DNA from: Halarcobacter sp.
Lineage (GTDB): Bacteria; Campylobacterota; Campylobacteria; Campylobacterales; Arcobacteraceae
Assembly: GCA_963676565.1 (NCBI GenBank)
Contig: OY781089.1
Coordinates: 1,920,001-1,984,000 of the forward strand
Direction of reading: 5' to 3'
Length of the DNA: 64,000 nucleotides
Below the pieces are notes generated by a model. That model saw only the letters and a program-made list of their open reading frames with translations, was not told the DNA's origin and did not search any database. The position numbers were made by a program, and so were the translations under genes. The first letter of the stretch is position 1. Each line of letters begins with the position of its first letter. This document shows, piece by piece, positions 33,096-63,306 of the stretch.

Positions 33096-33194
33096 GGGGG
33101 GTATGTGACCCTGGTGGGCACCACAGGCTTCAACCCTGATTGGCGGTTTATGTGTATACGCCGCGGTAGGTTCGATTCCTACACCTTCTCGCCA
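33096..33194 (+). tRNA. selC: tRNA-Sec (anticodon TCA at 33130-33132)
   Basis: D-loop TGGT, anticodon arm CAGG-CTTCAAC-CCTG, long variable arm GGCG...CGCC, T-arm GTAGG-TTCGATT-CCTAC, 3' GCCA. Divergent from selA, with TATAAT at 33076-33081. Confidence 0.92.
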
Positions 33195-33424: not shown

Positions 33425-33811
33425 GTGAAAAAAATTTTAGTTGTTGATTATGATAATTATATCTCTTCTTATAATTTTTTAAATAGATTAACAACTTATA
33501 AAATTGAGTATGTAAACTGTTATTCAGAATTTAAATTAAAATTTAAAAATAAAAAATATGATTTATGTATTTTAAGTATTGAAGATAACATAGAAAAAGA
33601 CTTTCTTGTATATGATATTTTAGCTTTAGACAAGTATCAAAATATCTTACAATTAGTAAGATCTGACTCTCAGTGTTTTTTTGATAAAGATTGTAAAAGC
33701 TGCGAAAAATATAATATTAAAACTATATTTAGTGATAACGAAGAAAAAATTATAAAGTATATAATAAGCTTTGAAACTTCACTATGTGAGTTTACAAAGC
33801 TTAATATTTAG
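33425..33811 (+). CDS. Degenerate receiver-like protein with Cys cluster
   Basis: KKILVVD...KYDLCILS resembles REC beta1/beta3 but lacks the phospho-acceptor Asp. CFFDKDCKSC in the C-terminal half. GTG start. Confidence 0.55.
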   Translation: MKKILVVDYDNYISSYNFLNRLTTYKIEYVNCYSEFKLKFKNKKYDLCILSIEDNIEKDFLVYDILALDKYQNILQLVRSDSQCFFDKDCKSCEKYNIKTIFSDNEEKIIKYIISFETSLCEFTKLNI

Positions 33812-38620: not shown

Positions 38621-39655
38621 TTAATAAATCATAATAGGACTTGCTCCTCTTGGAATAACTTCACCTATAATAGAAGCATAACCAAAACTTAATTCTTCTA
38701 TAACCTTTATATACTCTTTTGCATCTTCTTCTTTCATGGCTATTAATAGACCTCCTGATGTTTGAGCATCACAATATTGTAAATAACAATCATCAGTTGA
38801 ACACATTATTGTAGTTTTATCTTTTAGAAATTGCATGTTCTTTTTTGTACCACCAGGAAAAATTCCTTGATTAGCTAACTCTATAGCTTCATTGATAATT
38901 GGTACTTCTCCACAATGAATTGCAAATGAATTAAAATTATTTGTAGATTCTAAAGCATGACCTAAAAGACCAAACCCAGTCACATCTGTAACTGAACTAA
39001 CATCATAATCTCTTAAAATTTTTGAAGGTAAATAGTTTAAAGCCTCTAAGATTTTTACAGTTTCATTTTTTGTACTTTCATCTAATAAATCTTTTTTTAT
39101 TGCAGTTGTTAGAATACCCATACCAAGAGGTTTAGTTAAAACTAAGACATGTCCAATTTTTGCTGTATTATTTTTATATATTTTTTTAGGATGAACCATT
39201 CCTGTTACAGAAAGACCATAAAACATCTCTGGAACTTCAATTGTGTGACCACCCATTAAAAGCCCTCCACACTCCTGAATCTTTTCATTCCCACCTCTTA
39301 GCATCTCTTTTAAGACTTCTGTCCCGTGATTTTTTCTATCAAAACCAACAATATTTAATGCAGTTTTAACATTTGCACCCATTGCAAAAACATCTGAAAG
39401 TGAATTTGCAGCAGCAATTTTTCCATAAATATAAGGATCGTCAACTACAGGAGTAATAAAATCTAAGGTTTGGACTATTGCTTCTTCATCATTAATTTTA
39501 TACACAGAAGCATCGTCATTGTTTTCAAATCCAACAAGAACACGACCATCACATGGAGATAGGCTAATTATAGATTGTTTTAGGTCTCCCGGACCCATCT
39601 TAGCTGCTCAACCTGCGGCACGAACGAATTTTGTTAGTTTATATTCTTCATTCAT
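38621..39655 (-). CDS. selD: Selenide, water dikinase; selenoprotein with UGA-Sec at codon 16 (39610-39608)
   Basis: Extending the ORF upstream gives MNEEYKLTKFVRAAG-U-AAKMGPGDL, matching the G(U/C)xxK active site. Also DDA, DFITP, AAANSLSDVFAMG, TDVTGFGLLGH and DAQTSGGLL. Confidence 0.95.
39582..39596 (-). promoter_or_regulatory. Candidate SECIS of selD
   Basis: On the minus strand, GGGTC-CGGGA-GACCT hairpin starts 11 nt after the UGA and has a G-containing loop. Confidence 0.6.
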
Positions 39656-39843
39656 AAATTCTCTTTTAGCTAGTTACTATAAGCTTAAATTATAATATAT
39701 AAAAATATTTTTAATTAAATTAATATTTGATTAAATTTTACAATTAATGTAGTTAAAATTAGATTAATATATTAGTTATACATATAAGCAATAATTTTAT
39801 TTAAGAAATAATTAATTAAAAAAGCAATATAGTTTCATATTAT

Positions 39844-39946
39844 AAGCATTGCCTAAGGTTTAGGCTAGACATAAAAAATTCTTTTTTACTTGACTACTTA
39901 TGCTGTTTATCGTCTAAGGTTTAGACGCACATGATTTAAAGACAGT
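39844..39946 (+). ncRNA. Candidate structured cis-regulatory leader RNA (copy 1 plus a partial tandem copy)
   Basis: AGCAT/ATGCT outer stem, GCCTAA-GGT-TTAGGC hairpin, TAGACA...TGACTA arm, second hairpin CGTCTAA-GGT-TTAGACG at 39911-39927. Matches 42236-42304 with compensatory changes. Confidence 0.6.
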
Positions 39947-40007
39947 ACTTACAAAAAATATTCTTCTTTTTCTCATGTATTACAAAAATTATACAAAGGA
40001 AAATAAA

Positions 40008-41330
40008 ATGGGTGTTGCAGAACATAAAAAACTACTTTCAGATATTGGTGTTGATGTTGACAGACATGCTCAAATGATGAGTATGGGATTAGAATCTTAT
40101 GAGGCACAATTTAAGTCTCAAAATAACAGACCTAAGGGTATGGAATACTTTGATTGGTTTATGAGTGAGATTCAAGGTCAAAGAATTGCAGAGATTAATA
40201 AATTAAGAGCAGAAAATAAGCCTGCAGTTGGTACATTTTGTATTTTTGTTCCTGAAGAGATTATTGTAGGTGCTGGTGGGGCATGTTTTGGATTGTGTGG
40301 TGGAAGTCCTGCTACAATTGCCGATGCTGAAACTGAACTTCCTAGAAATATTTGTCCACTAATTAAATCAGCCCATGGTTTTAAACTTCAAAGAACATGC
40401 GCATATACACAAAGTTCAGATTTTATTTATGGCGAGACAACATGTGAAGCTAAGAAAAAAACTTGGGAAATCTTAAACAAACATCATCCTGTACATGTTA
40501 TGAATATCCCACATATGAAAAGGGAAAAAGATCTTAAAATGTGGCAAGAAGAGATTGTTGAATTTAAAGAGCATATAGAAGAAGTTGCAGGGAAAAAACT
40601 AAGTTTAGAAGAGATGATTGAAGGAACAAAAATCATTAATGAAAAAAGAAAAGCAATGCAAAGACTTGATGCTTTAAGGGGAATGGACCCAGATGTTGTT
40701 CCTATCTCTGGTAAAGATGCACTTTTTATTAATCAAATGGGATTTTTAGATGACCCAAAAAGATACACTCAAAAAGTAAATGAATTGTGTGATGAATTGG
40801 AAAAAAGAGTAGAAGAAAAAAATTCTGTGTTTGAAGAAGATACTCCAAGACTTATGGTTTTAGGAACTCCTATTGCTCCACCAAACTGGAAACTTCATAC
40901 TGCTGTTGAAGGTTCAGGTGGTGCTATTATAAATGAAGAATCATGTATCGGTCACAGATATTATAAAGATAATGTTGATTTAGATAGTGTTAAGAGTGAA
41001 GAGGATTTAATGAAACAATTAATGCAAAGATATAGTGCAGTTGATTGTGCTTGCTTTACACCAAATACACCAAGAATTGATAAAATTTTAAAAATGTATG
41101 AAGATAGATGTGCTGATGGAGTTATTTATTATACTTTATCTTTCTGTCATACATATAATGTTGAATCTCATCTAGTAACAGAAGCACTTGAAGCTGCTGG
41201 AATCCCATGTTTAGTTATTGAATCAGATTATTCACCTGAAGATGCAGGTCAAATTAAAACTAGAGTTGAAGCATTTTTAGAGTCAATCTCTTTTAAGAAA
41301 AAAGCAAAAAACTTTAAAAATAAAGACTAA
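40008..41330 (+). CDS. Double-cubane-cluster reductase (DCCP; 2-hydroxyacyl-CoA dehydratase D-component family)
   Basis: GTFCIFVPEE, GLCGG, PRNICPLIKS, GETTCEAKKK, EESCIG.RY, DCACFTPN, FCHTY and TRVEAF motifs. Start placed at 40008 after AAGGA. Confidence 0.85.
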   Translation: MGVAEHKKLLSDIGVDVDRHAQMMSMGLESYEAQFKSQNNRPKGMEYFDWFMSEIQGQRIAEINKLRAENKPAVGTFCIFVPEEIIVGAGGACFGLCGGSPATIADAETELPRNICPLIKSAHGFKLQRTCAYTQSSDFIYGETTCEAKKKTWEILNKHHPVHVMNIPHMKREKDLKMWQEEIVEFKEHIEEVAGKKLSLEEMIEGTKIINEKRKAMQRLDALRGMDPDVVPISGKDALFINQMGFLDDPKRYTQKVNELCDELEKRVEEKNSVFEEDTPRLMVLGTPIAPPNWKLHTAVEGSGGAIINEESCIGHRYYKDNVDLDSVKSEEDLMKQLMQRYSAVDCACFTPNTPRIDKILKMYEDRCADGVIYYTLSFCHTYNVESHLVTEALEAAGIPCLVIESDYSPEDAGQIKTRVEAFLESISFKKKAKNFKNKD

Positions 41331-41332
41331 AT

Positions 41333-42094
41333 ATGTTTTGGGGAGTTGACGTTGGTTCCACATATACTAAAATATGTGGAATTGATGAACAAAAACAGAT
41401 TATTGATACAATAGTTATTCCAACAATTGTAAATCAAGATGAGATAGTAAAAGATTACTTAAGTAATAAAAATGTTGAGATGTTAGTTTCAACTGGATAT
41501 GGAAGGCATATGATTGAAGACACCTTTTCATGTCCAGTAATTTCAGAAATAAAAGCCCATGCCAAAGGTGCATACTATTTTGCCCAAGAATCTCAAATGG
41601 TAATTGATTTAGGTGGTCAAGATAGCAAAGTTATTATGTTAGATGGAAATGGCGGTTTTGTAGATTTTAAAATGAATGATAAATGTGCCGCTGGAACTGG
41701 AAAATTTTTAGAAATAGCTTCAAGTAGAATGGGACTTACTCTTGAAGAGTTTTCAAAAATTGGCTTTGAAGCCAATAAAGAACTAAGTATCTCAAGCATG
41801 TGTGCAGTTTTTGCAGAATCAGAAGTGATATCTTTAATTGCAAAAAAGGAGAGTGCCGCAAATATTTGTTATGCTGTTCATGATTCCATTGCCTCAAGAC
41901 TTGCCTCAATGGCAAGAAAATTTGCTATCAAAAGTGATGTAATTTTATTTACAGGAGGAGGGGCATTAAATGGTTTTTTACTTCATCTTCTATCAAAAAA
42001 ATTAGAAAAAAATGTAATTAGTGTTGGTTATCCTCAATTAACAGGGGCTATAGGTGCTGCTTTATCTGGTTTTGAAGTTTGTAAAGAACTGTAA
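41333..42094 (+). CDS. ATP-dependent electron-transfer activase (BadF/BadG/BcrA/BcrD, HgdC/DCCP-R type)
   Basis: GVDVGSTYTK, STGYGR, DLGGQDSK, MNDKCAAGTG and SMCAVFAESE motifs. Confidence 0.92.
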   Translation: MFWGVDVGSTYTKICGIDEQKQIIDTIVIPTIVNQDEIVKDYLSNKNVEMLVSTGYGRHMIEDTFSCPVISEIKAHAKGAYYFAQESQMVIDLGGQDSKVIMLDGNGGFVDFKMNDKCAAGTGKFLEIASSRMGLTLEEFSKIGFEANKELSISSMCAVFAESEVISLIAKKESAANICYAVHDSIASRLASMARKFAIKSDVILFTGGGALNGFLLHLLSKKLEKNVISVGYPQLTGAIGAALSGFEVCKEL

Positions 42095-42164
42095 GAAAAA
42101 AAGTTAATTTTGTTCATTAAATAACAAAGAATATATTAAACTAACTTAAATCATTATTTTTAAC

Positions 42165-42182
42165 GGTAAATTTTTTTTTACC
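42165..42182. promoter_or_regulatory. Palindromic operator candidate GGTAAA-N6-TTTACC
   Basis: GGTAAAttttttTTTACC. Same geometry at 51750, 59171, 59292 and 33323. Confidence 0.55.
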
Positions 42183-42235
42183 TTTAAGAAAAGATTTATA
42201 TTTAATAGTTTAGTATTACATTTAATATTTAAAAA

Positions 42236-42319
42236 AAGCATCAACCTAAGGTTTAGGTTTGGACATAATTGATATGCGTGAAATTATTATGACTACACAT
42301 GCTTCAATACACTTGGAGT
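42236..42319 (+). ncRNA. Candidate structured cis-regulatory leader RNA (copy 2) with RBS-sequestering alternative hairpin
   Basis: AAGCAT/ATGCTT outer stem, AACCTAA-GGT-TTAGGTT hairpin, TGGACATAA...TTATGACTA arm. GCTTCAA (42301-42307) can alternatively pair with TTGGAGT (42313-42319, the RBS). Confidence 0.62.
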
Positions 42320-42324
42320 AATAA

Positions 42325-43419
42325 ATGAACAGAAGAACTTTCTTAAAAAACACAACAATATTGGCTGCAACTTCTACAGTTATACCTAACTTAGTATTTG
42401 CTAATGAAAATAAAAATCCTTTTGGTATCAAAGAGGGTGTTAGAAAATTTACGATTAACAACAATTTTAAACTTGAATCATCAAAAGAAAAAGCTCAAAT
42501 CTGGATTCCAGTTCCATTAAGTTCTAATTATCAAGAATTAGTTGATATCTCTTATTCTGGAAACTATGAAAAAGCAGAAATCGTAGAAAATGAATACAAT
42601 ACAAAAGTTTTATATGCAACTTGGAAAACTGAAGAAAAAGAACCAACAATTGATGTAAAATTTGAGGTAATGACAAAACAAACTTTTGCAGATTTATCAA
42701 AAGCTAAAAATGACGAAAATTATTCAACAAAAATTAAACAATATCTTGAGCCAACAGCTCATATCCCTGTAAATGACAAACTTAAAGAGTTTACTGCACA
42801 AATTATAAAAGATGCAAAAACTCCTTTAGAAAAAGCTCAAGCTATTTATGACTGGACAGTAACTACTATGTATAGAGACAACTCAGTTATAGGATGTGGA
42901 GTTGGAGATGCAGGTAAAGCATTAGATGAAAAAATATATGGTGGAAAATGTACAGATATTAGTTCTGTGTTTGTTTGTTTATTAAGAAATGCAAATATCC
43001 CATCAAGAGAAGTATTTGGTATTAGAGCTGGTAAATCAAAAATCTCAAAAGTTTGTGGTAAAGCAGACGAAAAAGGTTTTGCAAATATTACTGGTGGACA
43101 ACATTGTAGAGCAGAGTTTTATGTAAGTGGTCTAGGTTGGGTTCCAGCAGATCCAGCAGATGTTACAAAAGTAAGACTTGGTGAAAAATTAACAAATGAA
43201 TCTCAAAAAACAATTGATACAAAAAACTTTATGTTTGGAAATTGGGAAATGAATTGGGTTGCATTTAACTATGCTAGAGATTTTGTTTTAAATCCAAAAC
43301 CAACTCAATATCCTTTAAATATGTTAGGGTATCCGTATGCTGAAATAGGTGAAGATGCACAAAACTACTATGATGCAAAAACTTTTGCATATAGTTATAC
43401 TTCTCAAGAGAGAGTATGA
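42325..43419 (+). CDS. Tat-exported transglutaminase-like protein
   Basis: MNRRTFLK Tat signal. Catalytic Cys-His-Asp in GGKCTD, HCRAEF and WVPADP. Confidence 0.88.
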   Translation: MNRRTFLKNTTILAATSTVIPNLVFANENKNPFGIKEGVRKFTINNNFKLESSKEKAQIWIPVPLSSNYQELVDISYSGNYEKAEIVENEYNTKVLYATWKTEEKEPTIDVKFEVMTKQTFADLSKAKNDENYSTKIKQYLEPTAHIPVNDKLKEFTAQIIKDAKTPLEKAQAIYDWTVTTMYRDNSVIGCGVGDAGKALDEKIYGGKCTDISSVFVCLLRNANIPSREVFGIRAGKSKISKVCGKADEKGFANITGGQHCRAEFYVSGLGWVPADPADVTKVRLGEKLTNESQKTIDTKNFMFGNWEMNWVAFNYARDFVLNPKPTQYPLNMLGYPYAEIGEDAQNYYDAKTFAYSYTSQERV

Positions 43420-43745
43420 AAAAAAAGGTAAATTTACCTATTATTGGTGCGGTTTTTACCGCACTATTATCAACACTATGTTGTTTACCAGCATTTTTAT
43501 TTATTTTCTTTGGTATTTCAGGTGGAGTTTTAACTTATTTTACAACACTTGAATATATAAGAATCCCAATGGCTGTTTTAACGGTTGTTTTATTTATCTA
43601 TGGAATTAGAAAGCTAAATAAAAAAATAAAATGTGAATGTACAAAGGCTGAAAAACTTAAAAATTATAGTTTTGTAATATTGTCATTTCTTTTAGTTTTA
43701 TCTATACTTTTATATCCTGAGATAATTCCAATGTTTATGGAGTAG
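43416..43745 (+). CDS. MerT-like small metal transporter
   Basis: STLCC.P in TM1, three TM helices, CEC in the loop. Confidence 0.75.
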   Translation: MKKKVNLPIIGAVFTALLSTLCCLPAFLFIFFGISGGVLTYFTTLEYIRIPMAVLTVVLFIYGIRKLNKKIKCECTKAEKLKNYSFVILSFLLVLSILLYPEIIPMFME

Positions 43746-43748
43746 TAT

Positions 43749-44030
43749 ATGAAATATTTATTAGTATTAGTTCTTTTCATAAGTTCTATTTTTGCACAAC
43801 AAACTTCAGTTTTTGAAGTTAAAGGTATGCATTGTCCTTTATGTACAACAGCCGTTAAAAAAGCTATTAGAAAACTTGATGGTGTAGAAAAAGTAAGCGC
43901 CCGATTAAACACAAAAAGAGTAACTGTTATACATGATGAAAAAGTTACAATTGACTCAATTTTAAAGGCAATAAAAACTACATCTTATGAAGGTGTAGAA
44001 ATCTCTACAGAAAAAGCTATATCAAAATAA
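43749..44030 (+). CDS. Periplasmic heavy-metal-associated (MerP/CopZ-like) protein
   Basis: Signal peptide and GMHCPLC metal-binding motif. Confidence 0.85.
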   Translation: MKYLLVLVLFISSIFAQQTSVFEVKGMHCPLCTTAVKKAIRKLDGVEKVSARLNTKRVTVIHDEKVTIDSILKAIKTTSYEGVEISTEKAISK

Positions 44031-54607: not shown

Positions 54608-57448
54608 ATGGGTAGTAATTTACTCAATGATTTATCTTTGAAAATGGGAAGAAGAAACTTTCTTAAACTTGCTTCTATTGGAGCAGGGGTTGGTGCTACA
54701 TCTATGTTTGCATCAAGTAATAGTGTAAGAGAAGCAACACAAGAGGAAGTTAAAAATCCATTTCCTGGATCAAAGAGAGTCAAAACAATATGTAGTATAT
54801 GTTCTGCTGGCTGTGGAATTATTGCAGAAGTACAAAATGGTGTTTGGGTAAGACAAGATGTTGCACAAGACCATCCTATTAGTGAGGGTAGTCATTGTTG
54901 TAAAGGGATTGACCAAATAGATTTGGTTAAAAGTAAACAAAGGGTTAAATATCCTTTAAAAAAAGTAAATGGAAAATGGGAAAGACTTTCTTGGGAAACA
55001 GCCATTAAAGAGATTTCAGAAAAGATGCTTAAGTTAAGAGCAGAAAATGGTCCGGATGTGGCTATGTTCTTAGGTTCTGCAAAATTTAATTTACAACAAG
55101 CTTTTTATTTTAGAAAATTTGCTGCTTTATGGGGTACGAATAACATAGATCACGTAGCAAGAATTTGACATAGTGCAACAGTCGCTGGTGTGGCGAATAC
55201 ATGGGGTTATGGTGCTATGACAAATCATTTTGGTGATGTTGTTGGAAACTCAAAAGCAATTTTTATGATTGGTGCAAACTCAGCAGTTGCAAATCCTATT
55301 GGATTTAAACATATGCTGCAAGCAAAAGATAGAAATAATGCAAAACTTATTGTCGTGGATCCTGTATTCACAAAATCTGCTGCAAAAGCGGATCATTATT
55401 TAAGAATTAGAACCGGTACAGATGTAGCTTTTATCTATGGATTATTGCATGTTATTTTCAAAAATGGCTGGGAAGATAAAAACTTTATTGAAAGTCGTGT
55501 ATATGGAATGGATGAAGTTAGAGAAGAAGCAAAAAAATGGACACCGGAAGAGACTTCCGATGTAACTGGTATTCCTGCATCTCAAATTGTTCAAATTGCT
55601 ACTTTATTAGCAAAAACTAAACCTGCTACCGTTGTATGGGCACTGGGAATTACTCAACACAGTACAGGTACATCAAATACAAGAATACTTCCTATTTTAC
55701 AATTAGTTCTTGGAAATATGGGTAAAAAAGGTGGAGGATGTAATATTATTAGAGGACATGATAATGTTCAAGGTTCTACTGATATGTGTTGTCTTGCTGA
55801 TAGTTTACCTGGATATTATGGTTTAGGTGAAGCTTCTTGGAAATATTATGCAAAAGCTTGGGGCTTAGATTATAACTGGCTTCAAAACAGATTTGCAGCT
55901 CCTAAATGGATGAATGAAAAAGGTTTCTCTCTTGCTAAATGGTGGCAAGGTGTACTTCAAGAAGAAAAAACTTACTCTTCAAGTCCAATTAGAGCTTTAT
56001 GGGTTCAAGGTACTGGTATTACATCTATGGCTCAAACTGCAAAAGTGCAAGAGGCGTTAGATAAATTAGATTTATTAGTTGTTGCAGAACCATTTGTAAA
56101 TGAAGCTGCTGTTATTACAAGTAAAAAGGATAATATCTATATTTTACCTGTTGCTACACAGTTTGAAAACGAAGGAAGTGTAACAGCTACAAACAGATCT
56201 TCTCAATGGAGAAGTAAAGTTGTTGACCCATTATATGAATCAAAAACTGACCACGAAGTGATGTTTGAATTTGCAAAACAGTTTGGTTTTTATGATGAAT
56301 ATACTAAAGCCATGAAAATGGATGTTGTTGATGGTGAATATAAACAAGTTAAAAATGAGTTTAATTGGCCAGATGATGCATCAAATGAACTTGCAAGAAC
56401 AGTTAAAACTATTGGTCTTGGTGGTTGGACTGCAAAAAGACTTAGAGAACATCAAGAAAATTGGCATCTGTTTGATCCTATTACTTTAGAAGGACGTGGA
56501 AAATACAAAGGTGAATATTATGGTTTACCTTGGCCTAGTTGGGATACTAAACATCCTGGAAGTCCTATTTTATATGATGTTGATACTCCTGTTAGCCAAG
56601 GTGGTATGGGATTCAGAAATAGATTTGGTTTAGAACATGATGGGGTTTCACAATTACCAGATGAAGGTCTAAGTGTAAAAGGCTCAGATATTAAAGGTGG
56701 ATACCCAGAAATTACAAAAGCAAATATCGAAGAGGTTTTAGGAATAAAACTTACAGATGAAGAAAAAAGAAAAATGGGTGCAAACTGGAAAGTTGATTTA
56801 AGTGGAATTATTCAAGAAAAATGTAATGAAAAAGGTGTTTGTGTTTATGGAAATGCAAAAGCAAGAGCTAAAGTATGGACATTCCCTGACCCTGTTCCAA
56901 AACATAGAGAACCAATCCACTCTCCAAGAATGGATTTAGTAAGAAAATATCCAACTTATGAGGATCAAACAAATAACTTTAGAGTTGATGTTAGATTTAA
57001 ATCTGAGCAAACTGCCCAAGATTGGTCAAAAGAGTTCCCAACTATGCTTGTTACAATGAGAGTTGTAAATTTAAGTGGGGCTGGTATGCTTGAGCGAACA
57101 AGTAAATATCTTTCTCATATTACTCCTGAAATGTTTGCTCATATTAATCCAGAATTAGCAGCTGAACATGGACTAAGAGATGGTGATATGATGTGGTTAC
57201 ATTCTCCACAAGGAACAAAGATTAAGGTTCAAGCACAATACAGTGATAGAGTTACTCCTGATAGAATCTCTTTACCATACAACTTTGCTGGTGTTATGCA
57301 AGGTGTAGATATGAGTGCAAACTATCCAGAGGGAACAAAACCTTATGCAATAGGGGAAAGTTCAAATACTATTACAAACTACGGGTTTGATATTATCACT
57401 CAGATACCAGAGTTCAACGCTGGTTTATGTAGAATAGAAAAAGCATAG
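54608..57448 (+). CDS. fdhA: Formate dehydrogenase alpha subunit 1, selenoprotein (UGA-Sec at 55166-55168)
   Basis: Two in-frame ORFs joined by one TGA in DHVARI-U-HSATVAG. Tat motif RRNFLK, CSICSAGC [4Fe-4S], RGHDNVQG. Confidence 0.95.
55182..55196 (+). promoter_or_regulatory. SECIS of fdhA1
   Basis: TCGCT-GGTGT-GGCGA hairpin 13 nt after the UGA. Conserved in the paralog with a U-G to C-G change. Confidence 0.75.
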
Positions 57449-60474: not shown

Positions 60475-63306
60475 ATGTCACAAAGTACATATGATGCACT
60501 CAAAGCAAAAATAGGTAGAAGATCATTTATTAAAATGGCTGCCGTTTCTGCTGCTGCTGGTGCAACAAGTGCTTTTGCTAATGATGGAGTTACTAGAGAA
60601 GCAACTAGTGAAGAGGTTAAAAATCCTTTTCCAGGTTCTAAAAAAGTAAAAACTATCTGTACTGCGTGTTCTGTTGGATGCGGTATTATAGCTGAAGTAC
60701 AAAACGGAGTTTGGGTTAGACAAGAAGTAGCTCAAGATCATCCAATTTCATTAGGTGGGCACTGTTGTAAAGGTGCTGATATGATTGATATGGTTAGATC
60801 AGAAGTTAGGTTAAAACACCCAATGGTAAAAGAAGCTGGAAAATGGAAAAGAATTTCTTGGGATGAAGCTTATACAAGAATTTCTGACAAAATGAATGCA
60901 TTGCATAAATCTGTTGGAGCTGATTCAGTTCAGTTCTTAGGTTCAGCAAAAATGAGTACGGAGCAAGCTTATTACTTCAGAAAATTTGCAGCAATGTATG
61001 GAACAAATAATATAGATCACCAAGCTAGAATTTGACATAGTGCAACAGTCGCCGGTGTGGCGAATACATGGGGTTATGGCGCTATGACTAACTCACTTGG
61101 AGATATCCAAAATGCTAAAGCTATTATTATATTTGGAGCAAACCCAGCGGTTAATCACCCTGTAGGTTTTGGACATTTCTTAAAAGCTAAAGAGAGAAAC
61201 AACGCTAAGATTATTGTTGTTGATCCAGTATTTACTAAAACAGCTGCAAAAGCTGATCATTATTGCAGAATTAGACCTGGTACAGATATTCCATTTATGT
61301 ATGGAATGTTAAACCTTATATTCCAAAATGGATGGCAAGATGATAACTTCATCAATGACAGAGTTTATGGAATGGAAGATATTATGGAAGAAGCTAAAAA
61401 GTGGACTCCAGAAAAAGTTGAGGACGTTACAGGCGTTCCTGCAGAACAATTAATGCAAATTACTAGATTGTATGCTAAATCTACTCCAGGTACATTAATT
61501 TGGGCTATGGGTCTTACTCAACACACAATTGGTTCTTCTAATACAAGAATGGCACCAATTTTACAACTTGCACTTGGAAACATGGGTGAAGAAGGTGGTG
61601 GAACAAACATCTTAAGAGGTCATGATAATGTTCAAGGTGCAACAGATATGTGTTGTTTATCTCATACATTACCAGGTTATTATGGACTTGCTGATGGTTC
61701 ATGGAAATACTTCGCAAAATCTTGGGGTGTTGACTATGAATGGTTAAAAGGAAGATTTAGAGCAAAAGAATGGATGAATAAACCAGGATTTACACTATCT
61801 AGATGGTGGGCTGGTGTTCTTGATGGAAAAGATGGTAACGATAAAGTAACTAATGGTGGAACAAACCTTAAAATGTTATTTGTTATGGGTAATGGTATTA
61901 CTTCAGTTGCACAACAAGCAAAAATCAAAGAGGGTCTAGACAATCTAGAAATGCTTGTACTTTGCGATCCTTTTGTAAATGAAGCTGCTATTTTAACAGA
62001 TAAACAAGATGACGTATTTATTTTACCAAGTGCAACACAATTTGAAACAAGTGGTTCAGTAACAGCAACAAACAGATCTGTTCAATGGAGAACAAAAGTT
62101 GTTGAGCCAATGTATGAATCTAAAACTGACCATGAAGTTATGTTTGAGTTAGCTAAAAGACTAGGATTCTATGAGCAGTTTACTGCTGGAATGAAAATCA
62201 AAGATAACAAAAAAGATTTCACTTGGCCAGAAGATGCAACTAATGAGATTGCAAGAATCATAAAAACTATTGGTTTAACAGGTTGGACAGCAGAAAGAAT
62301 CAAAAAACATACTGAAAATTGGCATATGTTTGATCAAATTTCAGGGCGTGGATATGGTGCTATGAAGGGCGAATATTATGGATTACCATGGCCATGTTGG
62401 ACGGAAAAACACGGTGGAAGCCCAATTTTATATAACATCAACAGAAGTGTAGTTGATGGAGGTATGGGATTTAGAAATAGGTTTGGATTAGAACACGATG
62501 GTGTATCTCAATTAGCTGGAATGGGAAGTGCTCCAAAAGCTTCATCTAATAAAGATGGATACCCAGAAATCACTAGAGATAACATTGAAGAGGTTCTAGG
62601 AATCACTTTAAGCGCTGATGAAAAAGCAAAAATTGGTAAAAACTGGAAAGTTGATACTTCTAATATTATTGCTGAAAAATGTATGGAAAGAGGAATTGCT
62701 CCTTATGGAAATGCAAGAGCAAGAGCTAAAGTATGGACATTCCCTGATCAAATTCCAATGCACAGAGAGCCATTACACTCTCCAAGAGCTGATTTAGTTA
62801 AAAAGTATCCAAGTTATGCTGATAAAGCAAATCACTATAGAGTTGATACTAAATATGCTTCAAAACAGTCAGAAAAAGATTGGTCTAAAGAGTTCCCAAT
62901 TAACTTGGTAACAGGAAGACTTGTAAATATGAATGGTGCAGGTATGGAAAATAGAGCAAGTAAATATCTTGCTGCATTAACTCCAGAAATGTTCTGTGAA
63001 ATTAATCCTAATTTAGCTGGTAAACTAGGAATTAGAGATGGTGCTATGATGTGGGTTCACTCACCAGAAGGTACTAAAATTAAAGTTAAAGCTAAGTATT
63101 CATTTAGTGTTAGTGAAGATAGAGTGTTTATGCCATTCCACTTTGCTGGTGCATTCCAAGGGGAAGATATGTCGCACAAATACCCAGCAGGTACAAAACC
63201 TTATGCTACTGGTGAGAGTGCAAATACAATTACAAATTACGGTTACGACATCATTACTCAGATTCCTGAGACAAAAGGTGGTTTATGTCGAATCGAGCTT
63301 GCCTAA
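60475..63306 (+). CDS. fdhA: Formate dehydrogenase alpha subunit 2, selenoprotein (UGA-Sec at 61033-61035)
   Basis: In-frame TGA in DHQARI-U-HSATVAG. Tat motif RRSFIK, CTACSVGC, RGHDNVQG. Confidence 0.95.
61049..61063 (+). promoter_or_regulatory. SECIS of fdhA2
   Basis: TCGCC-GGTGT-GGCGA hairpin 13 nt after the UGA. Confidence 0.75.

Follow-up and report, generated by a model that had tools for sequence, protein, structure and literature searches.

The 64,000-nucleotide stretch of a Halarcobacter sp. genome analysed here (the window; assembly GCA_963676565.1, contig OY781089.1, positions 1,920,001 to 1,984,000) contains two leaders of about 65 nucleotides (nt) that share a conserved three-stem RNA structure. 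The first (copy 1) precedes an operon for a double-cubane-cluster reductase (DCCP), and the second (copy 2) precedes an operon for a transglutaminase-like protein with a twin-arginine translocation (Tat) signal, a MerT-like membrane protein and an HMA-domain protein. We propose, with a probability of roughly 0.85, that this element switches translation at the RNA level in a selenium regulon. Both leaders read as a preliminary description of this DNA had given them. Its interpretation is supported in part by the analysis below, namely for a covarying three-stem leader that belongs to the transcript strand and matches no Rfam family; a covariance-model scan against Rfam 15 placed no family at the motif, whether at gathering scores or at E-values up to 10. 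Bacterial selenium sensing and regulation are largely unknown: in the portion of Lin et al. 2015 (PMC5322559) drawn on here, the selenium regulatory network is described as not understood and a LysR-type regulator is the only candidate proposed.

A covarying leader RNA before selenium-linked genes

The main form of the motif is a three-way junction, in which P1 pairs AGCA(U) with (A)UGCU, P2 is a nearly invariant hairpin of the form NNCUAA-GGN-UUAGNN, a conserved GACAUAAA leads into the variable P3, and a conserved CU...A joiner is also present. Taken over 50 distinct rows, the consensus reads A-nn-AGCA-(u)-n-aCCUAAGGuUUAGG-U-un-GACAUAaa-[variable loop]-uuuaU-nnC-U-nnAu-a-UGCUUCA. Within the window the central hairpin occurs three times with compensatory arms around GGU (GCCUAA/UUAGGC, AACCUAA/UUAGGUU and CGUCUAA/UUAGACG), just as first reported; the last of these is a second P2-like hairpin in the copy 1 leader. 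Four of the five DCCP leaders retain this second hairpin, their loop being GGU or GUU, and in the fifth it is degenerate.

Covariation of P2 was recovered by RNAalifold from a MAFFT alignment of 54 distinct leaders that had not been fitted to any structure. Its outer pairs vary as AU 44, GC 8 and GU 2, as CG 50 and GC 4, and as CG 52 and UA 2, the three pairs adjoining the loop are invariant, and the apical loop reads GGU in 46 leaders, GGA in 4, GGC in 2 and a deviant sequence in 2. In a model-fitted alignment of 56 distinct rows, 90.9% of the cells are paired and double-sided changes are found at 11 of the 19 pairs; no shuffle out of 500 reaches any of five pairing measures, and slid partners give at most 46.7% paired. 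P1 is nearly invariant, and its support therefore comes from complementarity and from two natural variants (L061 and L068) in which it is shifted or re-paired.

The short sequence itself carries little statistical weight: an 11-mer allowing up to one mismatch has 5 matches in the window against 1.68 expected, a number that 6 of 100 shuffles reach and that is not significant alone, and exact copies of CTAAGGTTTAG number four in the whole genome, all on the + strand, against two for the reversed control. The significance of the motif is accordingly drawn from covariance-model E-values, conservation in relatives and covarying pairs rather than from the 11-mer count. R1, a covariance model trained on 16 leaders from the same genus, detects the motif in 48 of the 151 genomes of the family, spread over 8 of 22 genera. 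A loose pattern scan over 185,579 species genomes gave at least 119 stretches, from which 80 loci were taken for a check with R1. The model confirmed 20, all titled Campylobacterota and including Arcobacter, Arcobacteraceae, Poseidonibacter, Sulfurimonas and Sulfurovaceae; the other 60, from many phyla outside Campylobacterota, have no R1 match and are attributed to chance. A class-level search, in a sample made up largely of two other families, found the motif in just 3 of 151 genomes, with none in those two, f18 (0/53) and f11 (0/60).

All 59 distinct hits lie 5-100 nt before selenium-linked genes. Most (42/59) stand before the binding protein of a TIGR04553-like 'putative selenate ABC transporter', which comes with a PhnC-like ATPase; 11 stand before the Tat-transglutaminase/MerT/HMA operon, 5 before the DCCP gene and 1 before a gene for a YedE-like (Sulf_transp) transporter. 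Together with variants before selD, yedF and dsrE-like genes, this makes the tie to selenium genes, first suggested by the sel genes beside the two leaders, tighter than could be seen from the window. The link of TIGR04553, YedE and YedF to selenium is itself comparative-genomic (NCBIfam names and the portion of PMC5322559 drawn on here). An independent link exists for the DCCPs of family NF040772: in the part of Haft 2022 (bioRxiv 10.1101/2022.07.06.499078) used here, 955 of 970 occur in SelD-containing assemblies, a relation that is so far statistical for reductases whose substrates are unknown. In one relative (locus L030, genome G012) the leader of a second DCCP homologue (start MSVHEHKK) is different: it contains GUCUAA-GGU-UUAGAC and then UUACAUG and AUCUACA, and looks like a further variant of the motif.

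In every one of the 59 main-type hits, and likewise in the variants seen before selD, dsrE and yedF, GGN stands at the loop centre on the strand that codes for the downstream gene. Two pairs of the stem include G.U (GU 14 and GU 4 in the model-fitted alignment). The constant sense orientation of GGN and the G.U pairs argue that the element is an RNA and not a DNA operator. An operator, that is, an inverted repeat CCTAA-N3-TTAGG bound by a dimeric transcription factor of the selenium regulon, would explain the perfect short palindrome, its position near -10-like boxes and the placement of the yedF leader hairpin within about 10 nt of a TAAAAT box, and a selenium regulator of the LysR type has been put forward for other organisms (PMC5322559, same portion). 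Such a site would, however, be strand-independent and would need neither wobble pairs nor flanking helices. What we find is an asymmetric centre, a separate motif copy for each gene of a divergent intergenic region in that gene's own orientation, stem G.U pairs that would be mismatches in DNA, and P1, P3 and anti-Shine-Dalgarno helices that covary or stay conserved as pairings, which leaves an operator scarcely credible.

A -10-like hexamer (at least 5 of 6 positions) is found in 48 of 52 distinct upstream regions and ends 11-18 nt before AGCA in 33 of the 52; the predicted transcript therefore begins a few bases before P1. Many of these 52 aligned promoters also have a conserved (T)TAAG...TTTAT about 40-45 nt upstream of AGCA (39800-39806 in the window, for example) and 5' of the -10-like box, which could be a promoter element or a site for added transcriptional control.

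Predicted coupling of P1 to the ribosome-binding site

In the leaders of the ABC transporter (ATP-binding cassette) and transglutaminase operons a segment GCUUCAA(A)n starts within the 3' strand of P1 and pairs with (U)nUUGGAGU or (U)nUUGAGGU, which holds the Shine-Dalgarno (SD) sequence. This SD-hiding helix, noted at the outset in copy 2, is 7-9 bp long in all 40 distinct platforms of these two types, whereas shuffled-letter tails give a mean best stem of 3.26 bp and reach the observed length in 0.4% of cases; the sequestor also persists where the SD sequence changes from GGAG to GAGG. Since its 5' arm overlaps the 3' strand of P1, as in copy 2, the anti-SD/SD pairing and P1 are mutually exclusive, and the minimum-free-energy fold of the full copy 2 leader contains P2, P3 and the sequestor without P1. 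Among 50 distinct free leaders folded with ViennaRNA the SD sequence is predicted to be paired, with a mean unpaired probability of 0.02 and a value below 0.3 in every one. When four P1 pairs are imposed, at a mean cost of 3.3 kcal/mol, the unpaired probability climbs to 0.56, the rise exceeding 0.3 in 42 of the 50.

As forcing P1 frees the SD sequence, an effector that stabilises P1 would turn translation ON. On these folding predictions the main type appears poised as an ON switch that needs a stabilisation of a few kcal/mol at the junction: by default GCUUCAA would pair with the SD sequence and keep translation OFF, and in the ON state an effector would stabilise the junction, hold P1 closed and release the SD sequence. 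The loop of P3 often holds AUGC(A/G)UG (in the same genus; 42274-42280 in the window) or UGCU (in Sulfurimonas), each a repeat of the 3' strand of P1. This repeat, which is not present in all genera, could be a decoy that pairs with the 5' strand of P1 in the OFF state.

A leader of this kind might also act constitutively as a 5' stabiliser or fixed translational damper, with no effector at all, in keeping with the fact that no effector is known and that the predicted default state simply hides the SD sequence. We consider this very improbable, given that conservation extends to two mutually exclusive helices separated by about 3 kcal/mol, that the junction nucleotides are conserved, and that the association with selenium genes is strict (59/59).

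The DCCP leaders join the same aptamer-like domain to a different expression platform, with about 100 nt of leader between copy 1 and the DCCP gene. The 3' strand of P1 overlaps UGCUGUUU, which is able to pair with AGACAGUA around the second hairpin, and this pairing competes with a helix ACAUGA...AAAGA / UCUUU...UCAUGU that otherwise occupies a U-rich tract with complementarity to the SD sequence AAGGA. The minimum-free-energy fold of copy 1 contains the relay helix, which encloses the U-rich tract at 39964-39973, able to pair with the SD sequence, and ACAUGA/UCAUG(U) recurs in the five DCCP leaders. The alternative stem GCUGUUU/AGACAGU and the U-rich tract opposite the AAGGA site, both pointed out earlier in copy 1, are present there and recur in all five DCCP leaders seen, a sample too small for a test. 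The decision at P1 would here be relayed to the ribosome site via three helices, P1 presumably being the ON state in this platform too; with just five such leaders the relay is a reading and not a test. A single aptamer joined to different expression platforms is typical of riboswitches.

Variant leaders and the nature of the effector

Leaders of the selD type carry a variant hairpin, ACCUAU-GGA-AUAGGU, with the loop-closing pair flipped, followed by (G/A)UACAUAAA. Seven of these leaders were folded, and in the minimum-free-energy structure of each a downstream segment resembling UUAUUUACAC(C)UUCCAUA pairs with both the tail and the 5' half of P2; forcing P2 costs 2.5-7.5 kcal/mol and lowers SD accessibility by more than 0.3 in three of the seven, leaving it unchanged in three others. 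These folds suggest that P2 itself is the switching element in this type. A closing helix P1s (ACAUU/AAUGU, AAUAUAU/AUAUAUU, AGAU/GUCU, CAAA/UUUG) looks compensatory by eye and is not claimed: in a self-versus-cross test the means are 5.19 and 4.86 bp, and a stem of 5 bp is attained by 60% of the cross pairings, giving no separation.

Other leaders are reduced to the hairpin. Before dsrE-like genes it is followed by AUACAUAAAGG running into the SD sequence, with the hairpin ending 7-8 nt before the latter. The yedF leader is of this hairpin-only kind both in the genome of the window and in another family, and so is the leader of a Tat protein in yet another family. The survey of leader types indicates that the element common to all is P2 with an ACAUAAA-like tail. 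Stand-alone DsrE-like proteins of 112-146 aa, which correspond to YedF's C-terminal half, are encoded by genes that diverge from main-type motifs and have a hairpin-only leader of their own (L221, L224, L225, L226 and others).

Our preferred answer as to what is sensed, held tentatively and at a little under even odds, is a small molecule or ion complex related to selenium that the RNA itself would bind directly, which would make the element an orphan riboswitch class. For this speak the three-way junction, the conserved joiners, the P1 switch and the two platforms on one aptamer; like known riboswitches, the element is a conserved, covarying, structured domain in the 5' leaders of the genes of one pathway and is joined to a mutually exclusive expression platform. 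The metal or molybdenum/tungsten cofactor (Moco/Wco) ligands raised in the preliminary description find no support, as nothing points to either.

Several observations weigh against a riboswitch of this kind. No ligand is known, and ligand-ON control of a trace-element importer would be an unusual logic. Conservation peaks in the 13-nt hairpin, stem included, and not in the junction. The alignment behind P1 and P3 was fitted to the model and so leans towards it, RNAalifold on plain MAFFT alignments of the main and selD types recovers P2 alone, and P1, almost invariant as AGCA/UGCU, shows little covariation of its own. The genomes are relatives, so that the counts overstate independence, and transcription of the motif is presumed, with a start site predicted from the -10-like box alone. 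In the selD type closing P2 may act in the OFF direction, opposite to the main type, though the folding predictions leave that direction uncertain. Finally, the yedF, dsrE-like and one Tat leader have P2 and an (A/G)UACAUAAA-like tail without P1 or P3, and such hairpin-only leaders fit a hairpin-reading protein better than a small-molecule pocket.

An RNA-binding protein that reads the P2 hairpin and the ACAUAAA tail, akin to the reading of iron-responsive elements, is accordingly the alternative that these points bring up, and we rate it as unlikely yet far from negligible. It would explain why the hairpin, stem and loop together, is the most conserved element and the only one common to three-stem, selD-, dsrE- and yedF-type leaders, and why DCCP leaders contain two tandem hairpins; in the dsrE type, a protein bound to the hairpin so close to the SD sequence would block the ribosome. 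For a simple roadblock, however, neither the three-way junction nor the P1 switch would be necessary, and the analysis turned up no candidate protein. YedF/DsrE-like proteins were rejected as the trans factor on their distribution: at E up to 1e-20 none was detected in six genera that bear the motif (g19 0/6, g20 0/2, g21 0/2, g23 0/11, g26 0/6, g32 0/5). A conserved 63-aa open reading frame (ORF) that belongs to no known family (locus L004 1207-1395, about 7.3 kb past the window end) is located between tupC and the hairpin of yedF; it occurs in 58 of the 151 family genomes, has the C-terminal sequence ...AWIEELLK and recurs in the same arrangement in another family (L227). As a factor it was rejected, being missing from the motif-bearing genomes G008, G012, G013, G017 and G019 and present in genera where the motif was not found (g27, 7/21; g30, 7/7; g35, 2/2). 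A CsrA-type GGA-loop site was likewise set aside, the loop being GGU in 46 of 54 main-type leaders and GGA mainly in the selD and dsrE variants.

Among proteins SelB is the obvious candidate, and a mechanism for it had been suggested before, P2 being viewed as a mimic of the selenocysteine insertion sequence (SECIS). Binding of SelB, with or without Sec-tRNASec (Sec, selenocysteine), would report selenium status through its occupancy and shift the balance between P1 and the anti-SD helix, and in hairpin-only leaders bound SelB would block the ribosome directly. The GGN apical loop, which exposes a G as in SECIS elements, resembles genuine SECIS loops of the lineage, which also start with GG (GGUGU in fdhA, where the loops read by eye begin with GGU as reported earlier, and CC-GGG-GG in selD); selB, selA and tRNA-Sec lie beside motif loci, the hairpin alone recurs before selD, yedF and dsrE-like genes, and the SECIS-like element reported from the E. 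coli selAB leader offers a precedent. Against this, a SECIS hairpin stands just 3' of an in-frame UGA, whereas the hairpins here lie near the 5' end of the leader with no upstream ORF and no in-frame UGA before any copy. Their stems are nearly invariant next to the loop (UAA/UUA), where the real selD and fdhA SECIS stems differ completely; no such hairpin precedes selAB in the window; the conserved GACAUAAA, P1 and the junction have no counterpart in SECIS; and turning uptake genes ON when Sec-tRNASec is plentiful would not be homeostatic. We judge SelB improbable as the effector, and the earlier suggestion, which draws on the GGN loop, is neither strengthened nor dismissed by our results.

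Two further ideas were tried and rejected. One is a T-box-like pairing of ACAUAAA with the variable arm of tRNA-Sec: the two are complementary in the genome of the window, yet that arm is a covarying stem, and among 31 distinct tRNA-Sec genes it holds UUUAUGU in only about 2. The other, a leader peptide or the sensing of UGA at UGACUAC, fails in that the AUG and the UGA there are not conserved in genera g19 and g23.

Genomic setting and relation to known systems

The features of the window are collected in the table. The start of the DCCP gene was chosen from homologues that begin with MGVQEH, and its product matches NF040772 with an E-value of 4.4e-136. Identities in the copy 2 operon come from Pfam and NCBIfam matches, and the identical operon lies 3' of the motif in relatives.

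Table. Coordinates of the leaders, their predicted pairings and nearby features in the window
Feature	Position	Strand	Details
Copy 1, aptamer-like three-stem domain before the DCCP operon	39842..39907	+	model R1 62.1 bits, E 1.5e-9 (whole-genome search)
Copy 1 P1	39844-39849		AAGCAU; 39845-39849 pairs with AUGCU 39900-39904
Copy 1 P2 hairpin	39851..39865	+	GCCUAA-GGU-UUAGGC
Copy 1 P3	39870-39892		junction ACUAC 39893-39897
Second P2-like hairpin	39911..39927	+	CGUCUAA-GGU-UUAGACG, inside alternative stem P1' (39901-39908 with 39940-39947; GCUGUUU/AGACAGU)
DCCP relay helix	39929..39978	+	ACAUGA 39929-39934 with UCAUGU 39973-39978; minimum-free-energy fold
Copy 2, before the Tat-transglutaminase/MerT-like/HMA operon	42234..42306	+	model R1 76.6 bits, E 8.7e-13 (whole-genome search)
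Copy 2 P1	42236-42241 with 42299-42304		
Copy 2 P2	42243-42259		AACCUAA-GGU-UUAGGUU
Copy 2 P3	42264-42269 with 42286-42291		CAUAAU with AUUAUG
Copy 2 SD-sequestering hairpin	42301..42319	+	GCUUCAA 42301-42307 / UUGGAGU 42313-42319 (holds SD); minimum-free-energy fold
-10-like box upstream of copy 1	39828..39833	+	TATAGT; predicted promoter
DCCP gene	40008..41330	+	SD AAGGA 39996-40000; likely true start codon 40008-40010
DCCP activase ATPase gene (BcrAD/BadFG family)	41333..42094	+	
Copy 2 operon	42325..44030	+	Tat-signal transglutaminase-like 42325-43419; MerT-like membrane protein 43416-43745; HMA/CopZ/MerP-like 43749-44030
selD (selenophosphate synthetase)	38621..39655	-	divergent from copy 1; in-frame TGA (Sec) 39608-39610
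tRNA-Sec	33096-33190		
128-aa ORF	33425-33811	+	
fdhA, first copy	54608-57448	+	in-frame TGA 55166-55168
fdhA, second copy	60475-63306	+	in-frame TGA 61033-61035

Both leaders lie in a selenium island that comprises selB, selA, tRNA-Sec, a TGA-containing selD and two TGA-containing fdhA genes, the latter being paralogues each interrupted by an in-frame TGA. In many relatives tRNA-Sec is found about 1.3-1.5 kb from the motif, in the order tRNA-Sec, selD and divergent motif-controlled operon, and the selenium genes thus form a single compact island. A 128-aa ORF of no known family lies directly 3' of tRNA-Sec in the window. The selD gene of the window has a short plain leader without the P2 hairpin. 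A fourth copy of the hairpin stands 7.6 kb past the window end, 30-40 nt upstream of a TIGR03527 YedF gene that is followed by a second Sec-containing selD (locus L004 2163-3010). Each of the two selD genes contains an in-frame TGA (Sec), which is codon 16 or 17, together with a SECIS of the GGUCC-GGG type, and the P2 hairpin precedes only the second, via yedF.

We also consider it possible, and hold still more loosely than the small-molecule effector as such, that the element is the first RNA sensor of selenium status, an orphan riboswitch with a selenium-metabolite ligand whose regulon is an unrecognised pathway of selenium acquisition and handling. If so, the pathway would consist of a PhnD-like ABC importer, the Tat-exported transglutaminase-like protein with its MerT-like and HMA partners, the double-cubane reductase and its activase, YedE, YedF and DsrE-like proteins, and SelD, and the double-cubane reductases would gain a physiological substrate to test. 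A small-molecule effector would make this a new riboswitch class, for an element without a known RNA sensor. A conserved leader RNA common to the selenium-handling operons of a lineage can serve as bait for its ligand or protein and as a reporter of selenium status, and it nominates new selenium genes; the co-regulation it implies ties both the NF040772 double-cubane reductases and the Tat-transglutaminase/MerT/HMA system to selenium.

Neither a 'selenium riboswitch' nor the hairpin sequence in context was found in the literature searched. The only systematic survey of noncoding RNAs to take in an Arcobacter genome, that of Stav et al. 2019 (PMC6429828) with Arcobacter sp. L, has no selenium-linked motif in the part of its Table S1d consulted; its PDF supplements might show unnamed candidates. 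The proposed selenium-responsive regulators of Sec-related genes, LysR_Se and HrsM, are in the portion of PMC5322559 drawn on here DNA-binding proteins, whereas the leader acts as an RNA strand. Hiding the SD sequence within a leader RNA is a familiar principle; the novelty would lie in the fold, the regulon and the element that is sensed.

Among the known RNA systems close to this one is the leader of E. coli selAB. Thanbichler and Bock reportedly described in 2002 a SECIS-like element there that is bound by SelB. Like ours, that element is a 5'-leader hairpin of selenium-metabolism genes, has a G-rich apical loop and would couple their expression to selenium status; unlike it, the hairpin described here does not precede selAB, has invariant stems, sits in a junction with a P1 switch and is predicted to act in the ON direction. 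The Moco/Wco riboswitch (RF01055) offers a parallel as a leader RNA over a trace-element cofactor regulon that includes transporters, but it has no sequence or structure match here and regulates other genes. Iron-responsive elements are a case in which one short conserved hairpin serves several genes of a single trace-element regulon from their untranslated regions and has opposite effects in different contexts; they are eukaryotic and protein-dependent, while here no binding protein is known. The hairpin-only variants, with an A-rich tail running into the SD sequence, match the size and layout of the smallest riboswitches, those of the preQ1-I type, although the P2 loop has just 3 nt, which makes a classic loop-tail pseudoknot impossible. 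The purine riboswitch (RF00167) differs in its conserved nucleotides and in regulating purine rather than selenium genes, and it has no match here up to an E-value of 10; the P3 loop of our element is not conserved and so gives no sign of a loop-loop contact of the purine-riboswitch kind. In architecture, however, the adenine ON switch (add) of Vibrio is a close likeness, being a three-way junction of about 65-70 nt in which P1 competes with an SD-sequestering helix and binding turns translation ON.

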